Source: an uncultured Candidatus Saccharibacteria bacterium (GTDB lineage: Bacteria > Patescibacteriota > Minisyncoccia > Phycocordibacterales > JAKFXT01). Taken from it: a stretch of DNA of 64,000 bases. Positions 10,070 to 36,673 of this stretch are shown here, in pieces. The stretch covers positions 1,281 to 65,280 of the forward strand of contig CAYLPX010000002.1 in NCBI GenBank assembly GCA_964385825.1, in the 5' to 3' direction. Position numbers and translations under genes: made by a program. How positions within the stretch are numbered: position 1 is the stretch's first letter; the number at the start of each line of letters is the position of its first letter. The notes below the pieces were generated by a model. That model was given only the letters and a program-made list of their open reading frames with translations. It did not search any database and was not told where the DNA came from.

Positions 10070-10495
10070 TTATTTATCGGTTTTCTTAGTTACTTTCTTA
10101 GCAGCCTTTTTTGGTGCAGCCTCTACAGCAGCTACCGCTACTTTCTTACTACCCTTCTTTGGAGCTTCCTTACGAGTATCAAGAACAACTGCAATATGGC
10201 TTGAACGCTTCTTGATAACGTACGCAGCTCCACGAGCACGAGGAGATACACGCTTAAGCACAAGCCCCTTGTTCACCGTAACACTCTTTACTACAAGCTT
10301 ATCAGCATCAATGCCGAGGTTTGCCTTAGCATTGGCGGCAGCAGAGGAAATGAGCTTATGCACTGGGTTAGCCCCACGCTTCACAAGAAAAGCAAGCTCG
10401 CCGAGCGCTTGAGGCACGCTCTTACCAGTTACGAGGTTAGCGATAAGGCGAACCTTGCGAGGAGACTGTCTGTAATTAGTAAGTTGTGCTTTCAT
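10070..10495 (-). CDS. rplV: 50S ribosomal protein L22 with Lys/Ala-rich C-terminal tail
   Basis: L22 core plus an AAVEAAPKKAAKKVTKKTDK tail. Confidence 0.9.
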   Translation of the reverse strand: MKAQLTNYRQSPRKVRLIANLVTGKSVPQALGELAFLVKRGANPVHKLISSAAANAKANLGIDADKLVVKSVTVNKGLVLKRVSPRARGAAYVIKKRSSHIAVVLDTRKEAPKKGSKKVAVAAVEAAPKKAAKKVTKKTDK

Positions 10496-10512: not shown

Positions 10513-10860
10513 CTACTTCTTCTTAGCATCGGCTGTTGATGCAGTAGCGGCTTTAGCGGCAGCGATTTCGCTCTCCTTACGCTTCTGCTCTAGTTCCTTC
10601 TGCATCTTACCACCATGGCGAGTAAACTTCTTAGTTGGTGAAAACTCACCAAGGCGATGTCCCACCATGTCTTCAGTCACGAGTACAGCGATATGATCCT
10701 TACCGTTATGCACCCCGAAAGAAAAACCTACCATTTCAGGAGAAATCTGACTGCTGCGGTACCACGTCTTAATGACCCCAGTTTCCTGTGGCTTTTTGCC
10801 CTCAATTTTCTTGAGTAGCTTTGGTTCAACGTATGGACCTTTTTTAAGTGATCGTGACAT
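10513..10860 (-). CDS. rpsS: 30S ribosomal protein S19 with C-terminal extension
   Basis: [19 protein letters not shown]... FTRHGGKM; S19 family. Confidence 0.9.
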
Positions 10861-11027
10861 GAAAAATGTAAGTTTTTGGTTGGCTCAGCTTCTTTTTTGG
10901 CAATTAAAAAAACCTTATCGCTAAGGTCTCCAAGGCGCCAACCATGGAAGCTATAGGAGTAGACTATCAAACCCATACAAATTGTCAAACCCCCGCCATC
11001 CCCCCACCAAAAGTAGTAAATCATAAA

Positions 11028-11055
11028 TTGACAAAAACTATAAATGTGTTAGATT
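11028..11055 (+). promoter_or_regulatory. sigma70-like promoter candidate for the island ORF at 11126
   Basis: TTGACA (11028-11033), a 16 nt spacer, then TAGATT (11050-11055). A hairpin plus T-run follows at 11061-11087 (ccggttcacttaggtgaacgttttttg), and the SD and ATG follow that. Confidence 0.4.
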
Positions 11056-11125
11056 AAAAGCCGGTTCACTTAGGTGAACGTTTTTTGTTCCTCACAACGC
11101 CCCCCTAGGGGGAGAAAGGTAGCAC

Positions 11126-11695
11126 ATGCTTAGCAGGAAAAAATACCCCACCCTCGTGGGACTCATGGCCACCATTCCGGCTGTGAAAGTGGAAGTGGAG
11201 CAACTTCTCGCGGAGAAGTCCACTCCGAGCGGCGCCGCCGACAGGGCCGTGCACCAAATCGGTGCGGTGTTGGCCAAGCACGGCATGCTGAACGGCTTCG
11301 CGAAGTTGGCAGCAACCCCTCCGACCGCGCAAAGTACGGGTTCGGACGCTACCAGCTTCGGCTTCCCGATCGGCAACGATCGGCATGAACTCACCCGCCT
11401 GCGATTGCTTGCGGCCAAGGCTGAGGGCAACTACGATGAAGTGCGCGCCGAGGCCATGGCCACGCTTACGAACTGGGGAGGCAAGAGCCCCAGACGAGTC
11501 ACGGCCGGCCTCATCAGCCAAATCGTGGAAGGCACAGGGCGGCCCCGCTTCATTGCGGAACTGCTTGCCGCCAGCCCCACCGAACAGCATGGCGAGTTGC
11601 TGAAGCATGTCGCAGGCTACTACAGCAGAATCGGCCTGCGGGCTTCGCCCAAAAAGCTCCTCGCCGAGGCGCGGCAGGCAGGCTACCAGATCTAA
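11126..11695 (+). CDS. hypothetical protein on GC-rich island, antisense to the ribosomal operon
   Basis: 189 aa ORF with very high GC3 (gcc, ggc, ctg codons). SD ggggagaaaggtagcacATG. A strong terminator follows. The product is Ala/Leu-rich and helical. Confidence 0.5.
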   Translation: MLSRKKYPTLVGLMATIPAVKVEVEQLLAEKSTPSGAADRAVHQIGAVLAKHGMLNGFAKLAATPPTAQSTGSDATSFGFPIGNDRHELTRLRLLAAKAEGNYDEVRAEAMATLTNWGGKSPRRVTAGLISQIVEGTGRPRFIAELLAASPTEQHGELLKHVAGYYSRIGLRASPKKLLAEARQAGYQI

Positions 11696-11726
11696 GCTCT
11701 AGGCCGAGTAGGCCATGTTCTTCTCC

Positions 11727-11765
11727 GTCGGGAACCCTTCGTGGTTCCCGACTTTTTTATTTTTA
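11727..11765 (+). terminator. intrinsic terminator of the island ORF
   Basis: gtcgggaacccttcgtggttcccgac followed by ttttttattttt. Confidence 0.75.
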
Positions 11766-11897
11766 GAAAAATATTTGTAACCTTTTTTAAAATCTTCTAG
11801 TTTCATTAATACAAATTGATACTTGATGATTGCTAAGCCGAAAGTAGTTTAGCAGTCGCCAAGTGGAAATTTGGAAGTTTCCGTTTTGAATGCAAAT

Positions 11898-11925
11898 CCC
11901 CGCCGGCGCATGCGCGCCGGCGGGG
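11898..11925. repeat. perfect 28 bp GC palindrome
   Basis: ccccgccggcgcatgcgcgccggcgggg, sitting at the 3' end of the minus-strand island ORF. Confidence 0.85.
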
Positions 11926-11941
11926 TGTTCCGATGGCACCG

Positions 11942-12373
11942 CTACGAATGAGGTGCCGAACTGGTGTTGAAGAGTTCGGGGTCCGGCCAATCAAGCTTCG
12001 CCCCATCCAAAAGCGGCAAGGCCGCCTGGAAAAGATGGGCGATGTTGAAACACGCCGACTGGACGTCTTTTCCTGCCGTGTCGTCCTGCGCATCCTTCTG
12101 CAGAACGCGTATGAACATCTCCCCCACACGTATCCGACAGCGCCCCTCCTCACCTCGGCTCAAAACGCCTTGCCGAAAGGAAGCGGTGAGGATCTGGAGC
12201 AGTGTCTTGATTTCGTCACGATTCGGCCACGCTGAAGACTGAGCCCCAACCGATACCCTCTTCGTGAGTTGCTCAAGACGGTCCAGAATGAGCTCAACCA
12301 GAGTGTCCGCGACGCTCTTGATCGGCCGCTGCACGTACGCAACAGCCTCATTTATTTCAGGGTTTTCGTGCAC
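11942..12373 (-). CDS. hypothetical protein on GC-rich island
   Basis: 143 aa ORF with a GTG start preceded by GGAGGTG. High GC. The overlapping alternative ORFs on both strands make the coding call uncertain. Confidence 0.4.
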   Translation of the reverse strand: MHENPEINEAVAYVQRPIKSVADTLVELILDRLEQLTKRVSVGAQSSAWPNRDEIKTLLQILTASFRQGVLSRGEEGRCRIRVGEMFIRVLQKDAQDDTAGKDVQSACFNIAHLFQAALPLLDGAKLDWPDPELFNTSSAPHS

Positions 12374-12435
12374 GGGGCACCTCCAAGAAAAAAGGGTTAT
12401 ACAGCTCGCTTGAGCTTATACTCCACTAGTAAAAA

Positions 12436-12476
12436 GTCAAACGCCGCGGGCCTCCCGCGGCGTTTGACTTTTTGTT
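12436..12476. terminator. bidirectional intrinsic terminator immediately downstream of rplB
   Basis: gtcaaacgccgcgggcctcccgcggcgtttgac, flanked by aaaaa and tttttgttt. Confidence 0.75.
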
Positions 12477-12490
12477 TAATTTTTTCCGAA

Positions 12491-13333
12491 TTATCGCTTC
12501 TTTCCAACCTTGCGGCGAGAAACGATAAGGCGATTTGAGTATTTCTTTGGAGTTCGTGTCTTCTGACCCTTTCCAGTTGGGCGTCCCCACTTACTCTTAG
12601 CGCGGCGGAGTCCTCTTCCCTGACGTCCTTCACCTCCTCCATGTGGGTGATCAACTGGGTTCATAGCAGATCCGCGAACTGTTGGGCGAATACCCTTCCA
12701 GCGATTACGTCCTGCTTTACCAATCTTCTCGAGATGGTGTTCGTCATTAGATACTTCTCCAACTGATGCCCATGCAGTGTTGTGTACCTTACGAACTTCA
12801 GTTGATGGCATCTTAAGAAGGGTGTAGTCACCATCTTGCGCGATAACCTCAGCTGAGTTTCCGGCAGAGCGGCAAAGCTTAGCTCCACCTTCTGGCTTAA
12901 TTTCAATATTATAAACAAGCGTACCTACTGGCATAGCACCGAGCGGAAGACGGTTAGCAGCTGTAATAGGAGCCTTCTCTGCTGTTACAATCTCCTGTCC
13001 TACTACCACACTCTTTGGAGCCAACAGGTAACGCTTGTCACCATCCTTGTACCCAACAAGTGCAATAAAGCCTGTGCGGTTTGGGTCGTACTCAATAGTC
13101 AAAACCTTTCCCGGAACATTAAGTTTGTTCATCTTGAAATCAATAAGACGATACTGACGCTTGTGTCCTCCTCCCTTATGGCGAGTGGTGATGCGCCCAG
13201 CATTGTTGCGTCCTGATCCGCGGCGAAAACCCGTAAGGAGTGCCTTGTGCGGCTTATCCCCTGAAAGGAGATCACGATATGGAATCGTGGTCATGTTACG
13301 GCGTGATGGACTTGTTGGTCGGTACGTTTTCAT
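12491..13333 (-). CDS. rplB: 50S ribosomal protein L2
   Basis: 280 aa. The L2 signature (GGGEGRQGRG ... HPHGGGEG) is evident. Confidence 0.9.
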   Translation of the reverse strand: MKTYRPTSPSRRNMTTIPYRDLLSGDKPHKALLTGFRRGSGRNNAGRITTRHKGGGHKRQYRLIDFKMNKLNVPGKVLTIEYDPNRTGFIALVGYKDGDKRYLLAPKSVVVGQEIVTAEKAPITAANRLPLGAMPVGTLVYNIEIKPEGGAKLCRSAGNSAEVIAQDGDYTLLKMPSTEVRKVHNTAWASVGEVSNDEHHLEKIGKAGRNRWKGIRPTVRGSAMNPVDHPHGGGEGRQGRGLRRAKSKWGRPTGKGQKTRTPKKYSNRLIVSRRKVGKKR

Positions 13334-14968: not shown

Positions 14969-15135
14969 TCTATAAAAAATGCGACCCCATAAAACTATAG
15001 TGTCGCCAGTAGAAAGGTCTCAAATACTAACCGAGGCCTTTTTGTCTGGCGGAACTTTCTCTCGGAATCCGAAAGTGTTCACAGAACGCAATAGAAGGCA
15101 TATTACACGACCCTAGAAAAAATGCAAATGTTAAA

Positions 15136-15158
15136 GCCGAGGCGCAGCGCGCCTCGGC
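15136..15158. repeat. GC-rich palindromic hairpin
   Basis: gccgaggcgcagcgcgcctcggc followed by cttttgggg. Confidence 0.7.
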
Positions 15159-15176
15159 CTTTTGGGGAACACCCCG

Positions 15177-15491
15177 CTACACACGAGGATTCTTGGGAAG
15201 CTGCGCGGAAAAGACGATAGGGGCTCCGCGTCCTCGACGAGGGGGCTTTTGGGAAACTCCAGCCCCCTCCTTTTTCGCAGCATTCTTCTGTGCCCGGGCC
15301 GCCCTTTCCGCCAACACCTTTGTCACATGTTGGGGTGCCAACACTTGCCCGGTTGCACTTTTCCATTTCTGATCTATCGGACTTAACCGATAGACCGTTC
15401 CATAATGCACGAGTTCATCTTTACGCATAAAAGCCCTCTCTAAACAATTCTTAAGAAACCTTATCACAACTATCTTTTTCACAAAAATCAA
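15177..15491 (-). CDS. possible small basic protein on GC-rich island (uncertain)
   Basis: 104 aa ORF. Its C-terminal half is GC-rich and basic (RAQKNAAKKEGAGVSQKPPRRGRG). The overlapping alternative frame means it could be noncoding. Confidence 0.25.
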   Translation of the reverse strand: MIFVKKIVVIRFLKNCLERAFMRKDELVHYGTVYRLSPIDQKWKSATGQVLAPQHVTKVLAERAARAQKNAAKKEGAGVSQKPPRRGRGAPIVFSAQLPKNPRV

Positions 15492-15570
15492 TTGACGTAT
15501 ATGAAGGATGAGGAGTACGCTTATTATTGGGTTAGTTCACCACACTGAAGTACCAACCAGGAGAAGAGCC

Positions 15571-15927
15571 ATGCCAGGAAGAGTGGTTGATACCTATAGT
15601 TCCCGCAGCATAGATGAGCTGCTTGCCATGATGACAGCAGACGTGGTCAATCGACCAAGGCCTACTGCTTCCCCCCTTTTTCAAGCTATTGAACACCGCG
15701 GACTACATCGCGGTGAAAAAGGAAAACCCGACAAGGTAACCCTGGCAGGGATCCTGAAGTACGCCAGGGCCCAACTGGAACAGGAAACTGAGACCAAGAT
15801 ACTTCTCGCCTTCGCCAAGCTCATCAATTCAATCCTAGACGACGTTGCCGATTTCGATGATGGGCTGCCGCGGCAATCCTTCGAGAAGGCTGTTGCGAAA
15901 ATTCCGCCACACTTGGCACAGAACTGA
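15571..15927 (+). CDS. hypothetical protein on GC-rich island, antisense to the ribosomal operon
   Basis: ATG at 15571 preceded by AGGAGA (ccaggagaagagccATG). It is the internal start of the tracked ORF 15508..15927. High GC; terminators follow. Confidence 0.45.
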   Translation: MPGRVVDTYSSRSIDELLAMMTADVVNRPRPTASPLFQAIEHRGLHRGEKGKPDKVTLAGILKYARAQLEQETETKILLAFAKLINSILDDVADFDDGLPRQSFEKAVAKIPPHLAQN

Positions 15928-15939
15928 TCTGTGCCAGCC

Positions 15940-15970
15940 CCCCCGCCCTAAGGCGGGGGTCGTTTTGTGC
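15940..15970 (+). terminator. GC hairpin plus T-run after the island ORF
   Basis: cccccgccctaaggcggggg followed by tcgttttgtg. Confidence 0.6.
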
Positions 15971-15986
15971 CACGAACTTCAAAAAA

Positions 15987-16029
15987 CAAAACCCCTCCCT
16001 CGCGTCGCGAGGGAGGGGTTTTGTTTTTT
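15987..16029. terminator. bidirectional intrinsic terminator immediately downstream of rpsJ
   Basis: aaaacccctccctcgcgtcgcgagggaggggttttgtttttt. Confidence 0.75.
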
Positions 16030-16042
16030 GATAATGCTTTAT

Positions 16043-36017: not shown

Positions 36018-36060
36018 AACAGTTTATAGTTTTTAGTGGATAGTCTTATAGAAAACAAAA

Positions 36061-36097
36061 GCAAACTGCCGGCACGCGAAGCGTGCCGGCAGTTTGC
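36061..36097. terminator. bidirectional terminator after rpmB
   Basis: gcaaactgccggcacgcgaagcgtgccggcagtttgc followed by ttttcccc. Confidence 0.7.
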
Positions 36098-36173
36098 TTT
36101 TCCCCTTGACTCATTTTAAAACCGGCGTAAAGTTAATAGTGTCCCATTTCGGACTACACTCAAGGAGAGCATC

Positions 36174-36593
36174 ATGCAAAAGCATCGCCCGTCCCTGTGG
36201 AAATCGTTCTTCGCCAACCCCGCCAATGCGTTCGTCGGTATCGTGTCCCTGTTCGTCGGCATCCTCGCCTGGCTCGCCGAGCCCGATGCGCTGGCCGCGG
36301 CCTACACGACGTTCGACTTGCGTCCCTGGCTCGATCCGGTCCACGTCTTCGGCATGCTGTCGGCGTTTGGCCTCTTCCTGGTCGGCCTCGGTATTGCGTT
36401 CATCGTTGCGAAAACCGTCGCCCGGCACTACTTCAGCCACCGCCGGCCCGCGCTTCGCCAACTGTTGACCTTCGCCGTCGCCCAGACCAAAACTGCCTGG
36501 AAAAACCTGATCGCCATCGGCCACGCTACGGCCGCCATGATCGGCGCCGCGCTGCCGGCCTTCCGCCACCGCTCGGCTCCCCTGCTGAGCTGA
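36174..36593 (+). CDS. hypothetical small membrane protein on GC-rich island
   Basis: 139 aa. SD caaggagagcatcATG. GC3 is above 80%. Two or three predicted TM helices (FVGIVSLFVGILAWL; VFGMLSAFGLFLVGLGIAFIVA). Terminators follow. Confidence 0.55.
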   Translation: MQKHRPSLWKSFFANPANAFVGIVSLFVGILAWLAEPDALAAAYTTFDLRPWLDPVHVFGMLSAFGLFLVGLGIAFIVAKTVARHYFSHRRPALRQLLTFAVAQTKTAWKNLIAIGHATAAMIGAALPAFRHRSAPLLS

Positions 36594-36615
36594 CCGGTCG
36601 GCGTACTACAGTCCC

Positions 36616-36673
36616 GGCGCAACTGCGAGAGCTAGTTGCGCCAAAACCCCGCTTCGGCGGGGTTTTTTATTTT
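36616..36673 (+). terminator. tandem hairpins ending in a canonical intrinsic terminator
   Basis: ggcgcaactgcgagagctagttgcgcc, then aaaaccccgcttcggcggggttttttatttt. The T-run overlaps the stop codon of the convergent comEC-MBL gene. Confidence 0.8.

Follow-up and report, generated by a model that had tools for sequence, protein, structure and literature searches.

Morons are defined by a deviant GC content combined with a promoter and a terminator of their own (PMC3594210). Phage elements of this kind, such as that of HK97 gene 15, consist of a single extra gene of deviant GC content with its own signals, lie between co-oriented genes of an operon and are absent from relatives. The subject of this report is a cassette of similar build in a bacterium of the candidate phyla radiation (CPR; Patescibacteria). 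It was found in a stretch of 64,000 nucleotides from an uncultured Candidatus Saccharibacteria bacterium (contig CAYLPX010000002.1); this whole stretch is called the window, and all coordinates refer to it. The cassette carries ORF189, an open reading frame (ORF) in a 1630-bp insertion (10861–12490) that splits the ribosomal protein genes rplB and rpsS. Judged from the sequence, ORF189 and its signals are best explained, with a probability of roughly 0.55, as a moron-like, autonomously transcribed accessory cassette in a lineage-specific island, located at a clade-specific hotspot of the S10 cluster.

At the sequence level ORF189 has a promoter of its own, and it has its own terminator, a deviant composition and the position of an addition to a conserved gene order. 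Residence in a phage or prophage was not found: the flanking genes are ribosomal, the best match among the PHROGs has E = 0.039, phage tblastn searches gave no match and no fold match was obtained in BFVD. Unlike morons, moreover, the cassette has a cellular ribosomal-protein operon as its recipient rather than a phage late operon, the gene is antisense to that operon, and at least three genomes have retained the cassette, with its alleles reshuffled.

Integration hotspots and genomic islets are a second point of comparison, in that the L2/S19 and S10/L3 junctions hold different accessory genes of atypical composition. The usual islets differ in several respects. Here the hotspot lies inside the almost invariant S10 cluster, no integrase, tRNA or repeat boundaries were found, and the inserts span only 1–1.6 kb with one or two genes. 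Like ORFans, ORF189 is confined to a narrow clade and has a short, helical product that includes a disordered linker; its ratio of nonsynonymous to synonymous substitutions (dN/dS) is about 0.35–0.4. Unlike them, it has unusually complete conserved signals, a GC content at third codon positions (GC3) far above that of the host, and a homologue that makes up the C-terminal domain of a fusion protein of 483 aa.

Results

An insertion between rplB and rpsS

The S10/spc ribosomal-protein cluster occupies the minus strand of the window in the order rplC, rplD, rplW, rplB, followed by rpsS, rplV, rpsC and further genes. The original prediction had described, upstream of rpsS, a promoter, a hairpin with a T6 run, a Shine–Dalgarno (SD) sequence, a high-GC3 ORF and a terminator, and all of these features were recovered. 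Beyond it, the insertion was seen to separate rplB from rpsS and to run to 12490, with ORF189 on the plus strand, a second GC-rich orphan gene (ORF143) on the minus strand and a conserved 24-bp hairpin, termed element B (Table 1). The mean GC content of the window is 44% (sd 4.6%, 300-bp windows), compared with 61–65% at 11100–11700 and about 57–62% at 11900–12300.

Table 1. Features of the insertion and its flanks in window coordinates
Feature	Position	Strand	Description
rpsS (ribosomal protein S19)	10513–10860	−	downstream flank of the insertion; ORF and Pfam Ribosomal_S19 on identical contigs
rpsS 5' leader block	10905–10952	−	hairpin CCUUA-GCGA-UAAGG followed by U7; ΔG −8.8 kcal/mol; fold z = −2.1
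Candidate rpsS promoter	10961–10988	−	TTGACA (10988..10983)-16-TAGTCT (10966..10961); below scan threshold
ORF189 promoter (predicted)	11028–11055	+	TTGACA-16-(TGn)TAGATT; 10/12 matches in consensus scan; TG one base upstream of −10
5' leader hairpin	11064–11086	+	from scan; GTTCAC-TTAG-GTGAAC + T6; stem-loop 11064–11079, then GTTTTTTG
CCCCC/GGGGG hairpin	11100–11119	+	occludes the 5' part of the SD sequence GGGGGAGAAAGG; in minimum free energy and centroid folds
ORF189	11126–11695	+	189 aa; GC 63%, GC3 75%; basic, all-helical (predicted) orphan protein
ORF189 intrinsic terminator (predicted)	11727–11765	+	perfect 10-bp stem (7 G-C) at 11727–11752, then T6AT5, TTTTTTATTT
Element B	11812–11873	+	24-bp imperfect hairpin downstream of the ORF189 terminator
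G+C hairpin after ORF143	11898–11925	−	terminator-like; 12 G-C pairs, poor U tail; −33.8 kcal/mol; conserved with substitutions in L094
ORF143	11942–12373	−	GC-rich orphan gene; GTG start, GGAGG SD; convergent with ORF189
Bidirectional terminator hairpin	12431–12473		20-bp stem between A5 and T5, directly 3' of the rplB stop
rplB (ribosomal protein L2)	12491–13333	−	upstream flank of the insertion

More than 20 contigs from Joint Genome Institute (JGI), European Nucleotide Archive (ENA) and Logan assemblies of many samples carry the island with 100% identity; one contig has two gaps. Because these independent contigs, from three pipelines, all share the same junctions, the island is not an assembly chimera, and chimerism or contamination is further ruled out by the homologous layout in a sister species. 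Many contigs (L006–L013, L105–L109) break within ORF189, at about 11230–11540 of the window, and their ribosomal flanks assemble cleanly. Strain-level allele polymorphism or a drop in coverage at high GC could account for these breaks.

To place the insertion among relatives, 80 genomes were fetched with an rplB query and the rplB–rpsS distance was compared wherever both genes were on the locus. This distance is at most 186 nt in all 47 of the more distant bacteria. Among the 21 closest genomes (L2 at least 60% identical), which are labelled Paceibacterota, Nomurabacteria, Parcubacteria or, for third-party (TPA) assemblies, Saccharibacteria, 12 have a distance of 450–2900 nt. The wide gaps hold unrelated genes of dgkA-like, pilin-like and unknown type. 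Widening of the rplB–rpsS gap was recorded in L018, L020, L021, L027, L029, L031, L033, L034, L036, L037 and L046, and the rpsJ–rplC gap is filled in L018, L026, L027, L028, L036, L037, L041, L044 and L074. A diacylglycerol-kinase-like gene recurs in the junction inserts of L021, L034, L036 and L037, a pilin-like gene lies in that of L034 and a four-gene block in that of L018. Junction inserts are richer in GC than their flanks in L014, L020, L026, L027 and L046.

Since wide gaps with unrelated genes are confined to close relatives and all 47 distant genomes are tight, the rplB–rpsS junction is a clade-specific insertion hotspot, and the rpsJ–rplC junction likewise. In the literature searched, no account was found of CPR bacteria with insertions in their S10 cluster.

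Coding frame and protein family of ORF189

The start of ORF189 was set at 11126 because the SD sequence lies six bases upstream and the N-termini are conserved in two homologues, P0009 and P0011. Public annotations of the locus are inconsistent. The JGI annotation starts the gene at M14 (176 aa), and the ENA-derived one (L005, 3766–4269) does not call ORF189 but its antisense shadow ORF167 (11105–11608, minus strand, 167 aa), a fully open frame. In six-frame translations of the homologous DNA of two other genomes, contig L094 and the sister genome L014, the ORF189 frame scored 97 and 85 bits, respectively, against at most 62 and 52 bits for the other frames. For the open antisense frame, which is interrupted by three stops in L014, the scores were 37 and 18 bits. 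Between alleles of ORF189 the proportion of nonsynonymous differences (pN, 0.45–0.47) is below that of synonymous ones (pS, 0.66–0.70). On account of this frame-specific conservation and of pN < pS, ORF189 is taken to be the coding frame.

The base composition points the same way. The GC content of ORF189 at the three codon positions is 0.632/0.495/0.753, compared with 0.59/0.48/0.40 in rplB and 0.65/0.37/0.40 in tuf; GC3 of rplB, rplC and tuf is 0.38–0.40. The high GC3 that had been predicted is thus real, at 0.753 against about 0.40 in the host, and the GC distribution is not independent of frame, which had been named as a possible refutation. It is extremely unlikely that ORF189 is no gene at all, whether a by-product of a GC-rich non-coding insert, a chimera or the shadow of a true gene ORF167, and this alternative is already largely refuted. 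DNA of high GC does open long frames on both strands, and ORF167 is free of stops and was called in L005. Nevertheless, the values for ORF189 form a coding pattern and those for ORF167 (0.74/0.49/0.64) its mirror image, the SD sequence, promoter and terminator are all on the plus strand, and the junctions recur identically in independent contigs. ORF167 was rejected as the true gene because its frame is poorly conserved and has the three stops in the sister genome; the original prediction had likewise held the opposite-strand ORFs to be probable by-products.

With 14.8% Ala and 11.1% Leu, the product (isoelectric point, pI, 9.9) agrees with the Ala/Leu-rich, helical protein that had been foreseen. 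The three stand-alone proteins of the family are Ala-, Leu- and Gly-rich with pI values of 9.3–10.4. An AlphaFold2 (AF2) model from a four-sequence alignment is all-helical, with 11 helices, a mean predicted local distance difference test score (pLDDT) of 67 and a predicted template modelling score (pTM) of 0.50. In this model residues 57–77 form a disordered linker, and the C-terminal half is better defined. On the preferred reading the product is probably a soluble, basic, two-domain helical protein.

The homology and structure checks proposed in the original prediction linked ORF189 to no known family or fold. It gave no match in Pfam, NCBIfam, PDB sequences or the fold library, and the non-significant PHROG match was the only one in that collection. 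Neither ORF189 nor ORF143 matched any PADLOC family at E values up to 1. A word-indexed search of 5.8 billion proteins with ORF189, ORF143 and the family profile returned self matches only, and profile scans of viral and metagenome contigs, as well as exact-pattern scans for element B and the leader, found nothing. As an exception, an exhaustive HMMER scan of 1.84 billion cluster representatives detected three relatives, which makes a family of four members that is absent from current databases.

P0010 (170 aa, 40% identical to ORF189) is found between rplB and rpsS, again antisense to the operon, in the sister species L014, whose L2 is 94% identical and whose tuf differs by a dN of 0.009. P0009 (193 aa, 38% identity) lies on the 1.6-kb contig L094 together with a copy of ORF143. 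The family was found at the rplB–rpsS site in the window genome and L014 only, L094 being too short to show its flanks. A distant relative, P0011, is a protein of 483 aa of which the C-terminal 185 residues match ORF189 with 33% identity, while the N-terminal 290 aa are outside the ORF189-like domain. As a guess, this N-terminal half might be of a Rossmann or methyltransferase type. Its gene (L095, 8001–9452; GC 0.50 against about 0.42 locally) adjoins rpsO in another CPR-like genome, among four orphan ORFs and a tyrosine recombinase of the Xer/phage type. The neighbours of P0011 gave no family matches, and a single-sequence AF2 model of P0011 was unusable (pLDDT 39.5).

Two further identities were considered and gained no support. 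A ribosomal protein or ribosome-associated factor is opposed by the lack of Pfam, NCBIfam and PDB matches, by a family of only four members and by the antisense position with its own promoter. A known anti-phage defence or toxin–antitoxin system is opposed by the lack of a PADLOC profile match; moreover, ORF189 and ORF143 are convergent, have their own terminators and are not conserved together.

Transcription and translation signals of ORF189

The order of promoter, hairpin with T-run, SD hairpin and terminator is repeated at the homologous locus of L094 and L014. The dS of the flanking ribosomal-protein genes is 0.6–1.4 between the window and L014, so neutral DNA is expected to be poorly alignable, yet short blocks are conserved. 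In the same consensus scan the homologous promoter sites match at 10 of 12 positions in L094 and 11 of 12 in L014. Across the three genomes AAATTGACAAA is invariant, as is the −35 element TTGACA, and the −10 element reads TAnATT, with a variable spacer. The promoter and the leader hairpin are credible because they are conserved in the two other genomes; taken singly, neither goes beyond chance. The promoter, of sigma-70 type, had been called near-consensus, and this holds for its 10 of 12 matches and its conservation, although the match alone is not statistically unusual.

The leader hairpin forms, as DNA, a perfect palindrome that would overlap the transcription start. It is kept in all three genomes with an invariant loop, and a single A-to-G change in L094 retains a G·U pair. 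The conserved block GGTTCAC-TTAG-GTGAAC begins 7–8 nt past the −10 element in each genome and is followed by a T-run. The folding energy of the hairpin is −7.2 to −8.5 kcal/mol, and the leader region as a whole has an unremarkable fold (z = −0.26).

Stem-loops located at the 5' terminus near +1 act as mRNA stabilisers, as in the leaders of E. coli ompA and B. subtilis aprE. The hairpin of ORF189 is similarly small, lies within a few nucleotides of the predicted 5' end and precedes a strong SD sequence. It differs from the ompA and aprE hairpins in the U-run that follows and in being a perfect palindrome as DNA, so that it may also serve as a terminator or operator. A 5'-terminal stabiliser is accordingly ranked first among its likely roles, a DNA operator second and a transcription attenuator third.

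The attenuator had been put forward as a possibility in the original prediction, and it is here that the prediction fared worst, although the hairpin itself is present and conserved. According to this proposal most transcripts would be aborted at about 25 nt unless a signal relieved the block. The hairpin followed by T5–6 passes the criteria of the terminator scan in three genomes, and the stem is preserved by the G·U-compatible change in L094. Nevertheless, its energy and its three G-C pairs compare poorly with the −16 to −19 kcal/mol of the 3' terminators, neither an anti-terminator pairing nor a leader peptide is visible in the 64-nt leader, and a start at about +1 to +3 would place it where stem-loops generally stabilise. 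Attenuation is therefore thought unlikely.

The palindrome might instead be an operator. ORF189 would then be a DNA-binding regulator transcribed divergently from the rpsS operon, which binds GTTCAC-N4-GTGAAC at its own start and perhaps couples its autoregulation to ribosomal-protein expression. Consistent with this, two conserved promoters stand back to back, 34 bp apart, and the 6+6 palindrome has an invariant loop and starts 7–8 nt past the −10 element in three genomes. The protein is basic and helical, and a stretch conserved as DNA (11237–11311, residues 38–62) resembles a helix-turn-helix. However, no helix-turn-helix or other DNA-binding family or fold was detected, a protein identity of 37–38% between genomes with an identical operator is an odd fit, and most relatives still express rpsS although they lack the family. 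A regulator of this kind is rather improbable.

The hairpin that occludes the SD sequence has a ΔG of −9.1 kcal/mol (−6.3 for the L014 variant) and is conserved in the three-genome alignment; its overlap with the SD sequence suggests translational damping. At the 3' end, the perfect terminator of the original prediction was borne out by 10 perfect pairs. The fold of the region reaches −29.5 kcal/mol (z = −4.09), a value equalled by none of 200 shuffles. The ORF189-type terminators of the three genomes (ΔG −19.2, −18.3 and −16.0 kcal/mol) have entirely different stems with a common TTTTTTATT tail.

Allele divergence and recombination

Among close relatives ORF189 diverges far faster than its flanks, a feature that had not been predicted. 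The three stand-alone alleles are roughly equidistant, with 34–38% protein identity, dN of 0.70–0.74 and dS of 1.6–2.1, while the flanking ribosomal proteins are 94–99% identical. Between the window and L094 the dS of ORF189 is about 2.1 and that of the adjacent ORF143 is 0.20, a tenfold step over about 250 bp. As a result of this step the two halves of the island must have different histories, so recombination has occurred. The DNA alignment with L094 is a mosaic: promoter and leader are conserved, the body of the ORF cannot be aligned, and from 11764 on the identity is 89.5%. Within the body only the segment encoding residues 38–62 and a short stretch near 11539–11577 can be aligned as DNA. 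A recombination breakpoint is apparent in these alignments between the terminator stem and the T-run. The sequences are best explained by a family under moderate purifying selection, whose alleles are deeply divergent and have probably been reshuffled by recombination between conserved flanks.

GC3 is 0.67–0.76 in all alleles, the hosts have about 44% GC and the synonymous sites are saturated. To keep GC3 this high takes recurrent import from a GC-rich source not yet sampled, gene conversion biased towards GC at a recombination hotspot, or selection. A tentative extension, to which little probability is given, is that the island is a 'hot-swap' locus of a kind not described before, in which the GC-rich body and terminator stem (about 11157–11752) are exchanged among CPR lineages by recombination within conserved AT-rich flanks. 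The left flank would comprise the promoter, the 5' hairpin, the SD sequence and the first 10 codons, and the right flank the T-run and element B. Such a locus would hold ancient divergent alleles within the ribosomal-protein cluster for a conflict function against phage or in host-cell interaction or kin discrimination, and the lasting high GC3 would be the trace left by GC-biased gene conversion or by a GC-rich reservoir not yet sampled.

A related proposal is that ORF189, possibly with ORF143, belongs to a conflict system (immunity, anti-phage or anti-defence, or symbiont–host) and is polymorphic through diversifying or balancing selection. It concerns function and is compatible with the anatomy of a cassette. 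The divergence of the alleles relative to the flanking proteins and the tenfold synonymous step agree with it, as do the location at an insertion hotspot and the position of P0011 among orphan genes near a tyrosine recombinase. A second island of the window is alike, its antisense gene being 24% and its sense gene 48% identical to those of the sister species. Nevertheless, PADLOC, PHROG and Pfam gave no matches for ORF189, ORF143 or the neighbours of P0011. ORF143 is missing from the sister species and is convergent, not co-transcribed, with ORF189. An overall dN/dS below 1 among three alleles fits relaxed constraint alone. A conflict system of this description is considered possible but unlikely.

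Two known sources of gene diversity or mobility were rejected. A diversity-generating retroelement is opposed by the absence of a second copy of any part of 11061–11900 in the 64-kb window, and the divergence spans the whole ORF rather than a short C-terminal repeat. An integron cassette is opposed by the promoter of its own, and no GTTRRRY site was read in 11812–11873 or its flanks.

Other elements of the island

ORF143 is 89% identical to its copy in L094 (dS 0.20, dN 0.06, ω 0.31), with 9, 8 and 20 substitutions at the first, second and third codon positions. It is missing from the sister genome (L014/L097), where ORF189 is kept.

Element B belongs to a block (11800–11882) that is about 95% identical across the three genomes. 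Its minimum free energy is −27.6 kcal/mol on the plus strand (z = −4.25) and −18.3 kcal/mol on the minus strand; the plus strand is favored because of four G·U pairs. The only two stem substitutions in L014 make up one compensatory exchange of U-A to A-U. A search of 10861–12400 with the covariance models of Rfam 15 gave no match at E values up to 1, the only weak matches being on the rplB terminator hairpin, so that the 62-nt hairpin is absent from current databases. It is present as a single copy in the window and has no conserved promoter. Among the possible roles of element B are those of a new small RNA, of a structure for processing or insulation, and of a recombination site.

The original prediction had also expected the spacer to carry an rpsS promoter on the other strand. 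A candidate was found back to back with that of ORF189. In three genomes its −35 element is invariant and its −10 element reads TAGTCT, TAGTCT and TAAGCT, with a variable spacer. The leader block downstream is 96% identical to that of L014 despite a dS of about 1. Together they could represent a new promoter and autoregulatory leader for rpsS–rplV–rpsC, created by the split of the operon. One arm of the leader (10913–10924) is perfectly complementary to 12 nt within rplV (10437–10448), which may be chance.

Similar islets elsewhere in the window

A second insertion, of 1074 bp (14969–16042) and with a GC content of up to 57%, separates rpsJ from rplC. It contains two divergent orphan genes and three terminator-like hairpins and is bracketed by terminators. 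The minus-strand gene is ORF83/104 (15177–15428 or 15491). The plus-strand gene is ORF139 (15508–15927), with a likely start at M22 (15571) behind the SD sequence AGGAGAAG. A TTGAGA-18-TATAGT site at 15023..14994 may be the rplC promoter. No relationship was detected between the genes of the two islands.

A third GC-rich islet (36018–36670, 66% GC) of the same cassette design lies directly 3' of rpmB (L28; 35775–36017). This islet combines a terminator hairpin with a promoter-like site (TTGACT), the SD sequence AAGGAG, an ORF at 36174–36593 of 139 aa with a membrane-like look, and a strong terminator. The genes of the second island and third islet gave no Pfam matches.

Discussion

In the mechanism proposed for the cassette, RNA polymerase would initiate near 11062 and the first 20 or so nucleotides of the transcript would fold into the small stem-loop, which is more likely a 5'-terminal stabiliser or, as DNA, an operator than a terminator. 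Translation would begin at 11126 from an SD sequence partly sequestered in the CCCCC/GGGGG hairpin, and transcription would end within the 3' terminator, near 11760. The terminators of ORF189, rplB and ORF143 would insulate the island from the ribosomal genes. The candidate promoter and leader of rpsS would serve that gene and those downstream. The S10 cluster would then be cut into separately promoted units, namely rplC–rplB, rpsS with its downstream genes and, apart from these, rpsJ. The best guess as to function is that ORF189 may have an accessory or conflict-type role and be dispensable, and that it does not belong to the translation apparatus; the absence of ORF143 from the sister species is cited for the presumed dispensability.

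Several observations weigh against an accessory cassette acquired at a hotspot. Neither direct repeats nor a target-site duplication were found at the ends of the island, and no phage, plasmid, integrase or transposase gene marks it as mobile. The surroundings of the island show no integrase; the protein-family scans did not extend to the remaining large ORFs of the window. Phage and plasmid tblastn searches gave no matches, and no GC-rich donor homologue was found in any database searched. Promoter matches at 10 of 12 positions are not rare, with 9 on both strands of the window against about 15 in Markov simulations. With the synonymous sites saturated, a single old transfer is insufficient to account for the high GC3. 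Moreover, the conservation of the gene and its signals over a dS of about 1–2 suggests a function in the lineage rather than a passenger, and proximity to a ribosomal gene recurs in P0011 beside rpsO.

Orphan accessory genes at hotspots and moron-like cassettes are already known kinds. Five points appear to be new: the location at the rplB–rpsS junction, a complete set of conserved signals framing a gene that diverges fast and stays GC-rich, the mosaic left by recombination, and two undescribed items, the protein family and the structured 62-nt element. As an evolutionary and genomic oddity the locus is of moderate interest; it is no breakthrough.

Few gene adjacencies in bacteria are as conserved as that of rplB and rpsS. 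An ultra-small CPR clade nevertheless tolerates insertions there and at rpsJ–rplC, which cut the S10 cluster into units that are, by prediction, separately promoted and terminated. The genes inserted are orphans that come with a full set of regulatory signals, exceed the GC3 of the host by about 35 points and diverge extremely between close relatives. The locus could show how streamlined symbiont genomes acquire and cycle accessory genes, and how a ribosomal operon is rewired around insertions through a new rpsS promoter and leader. It could also show whether local recombination holds a gene far from the genomic GC equilibrium.

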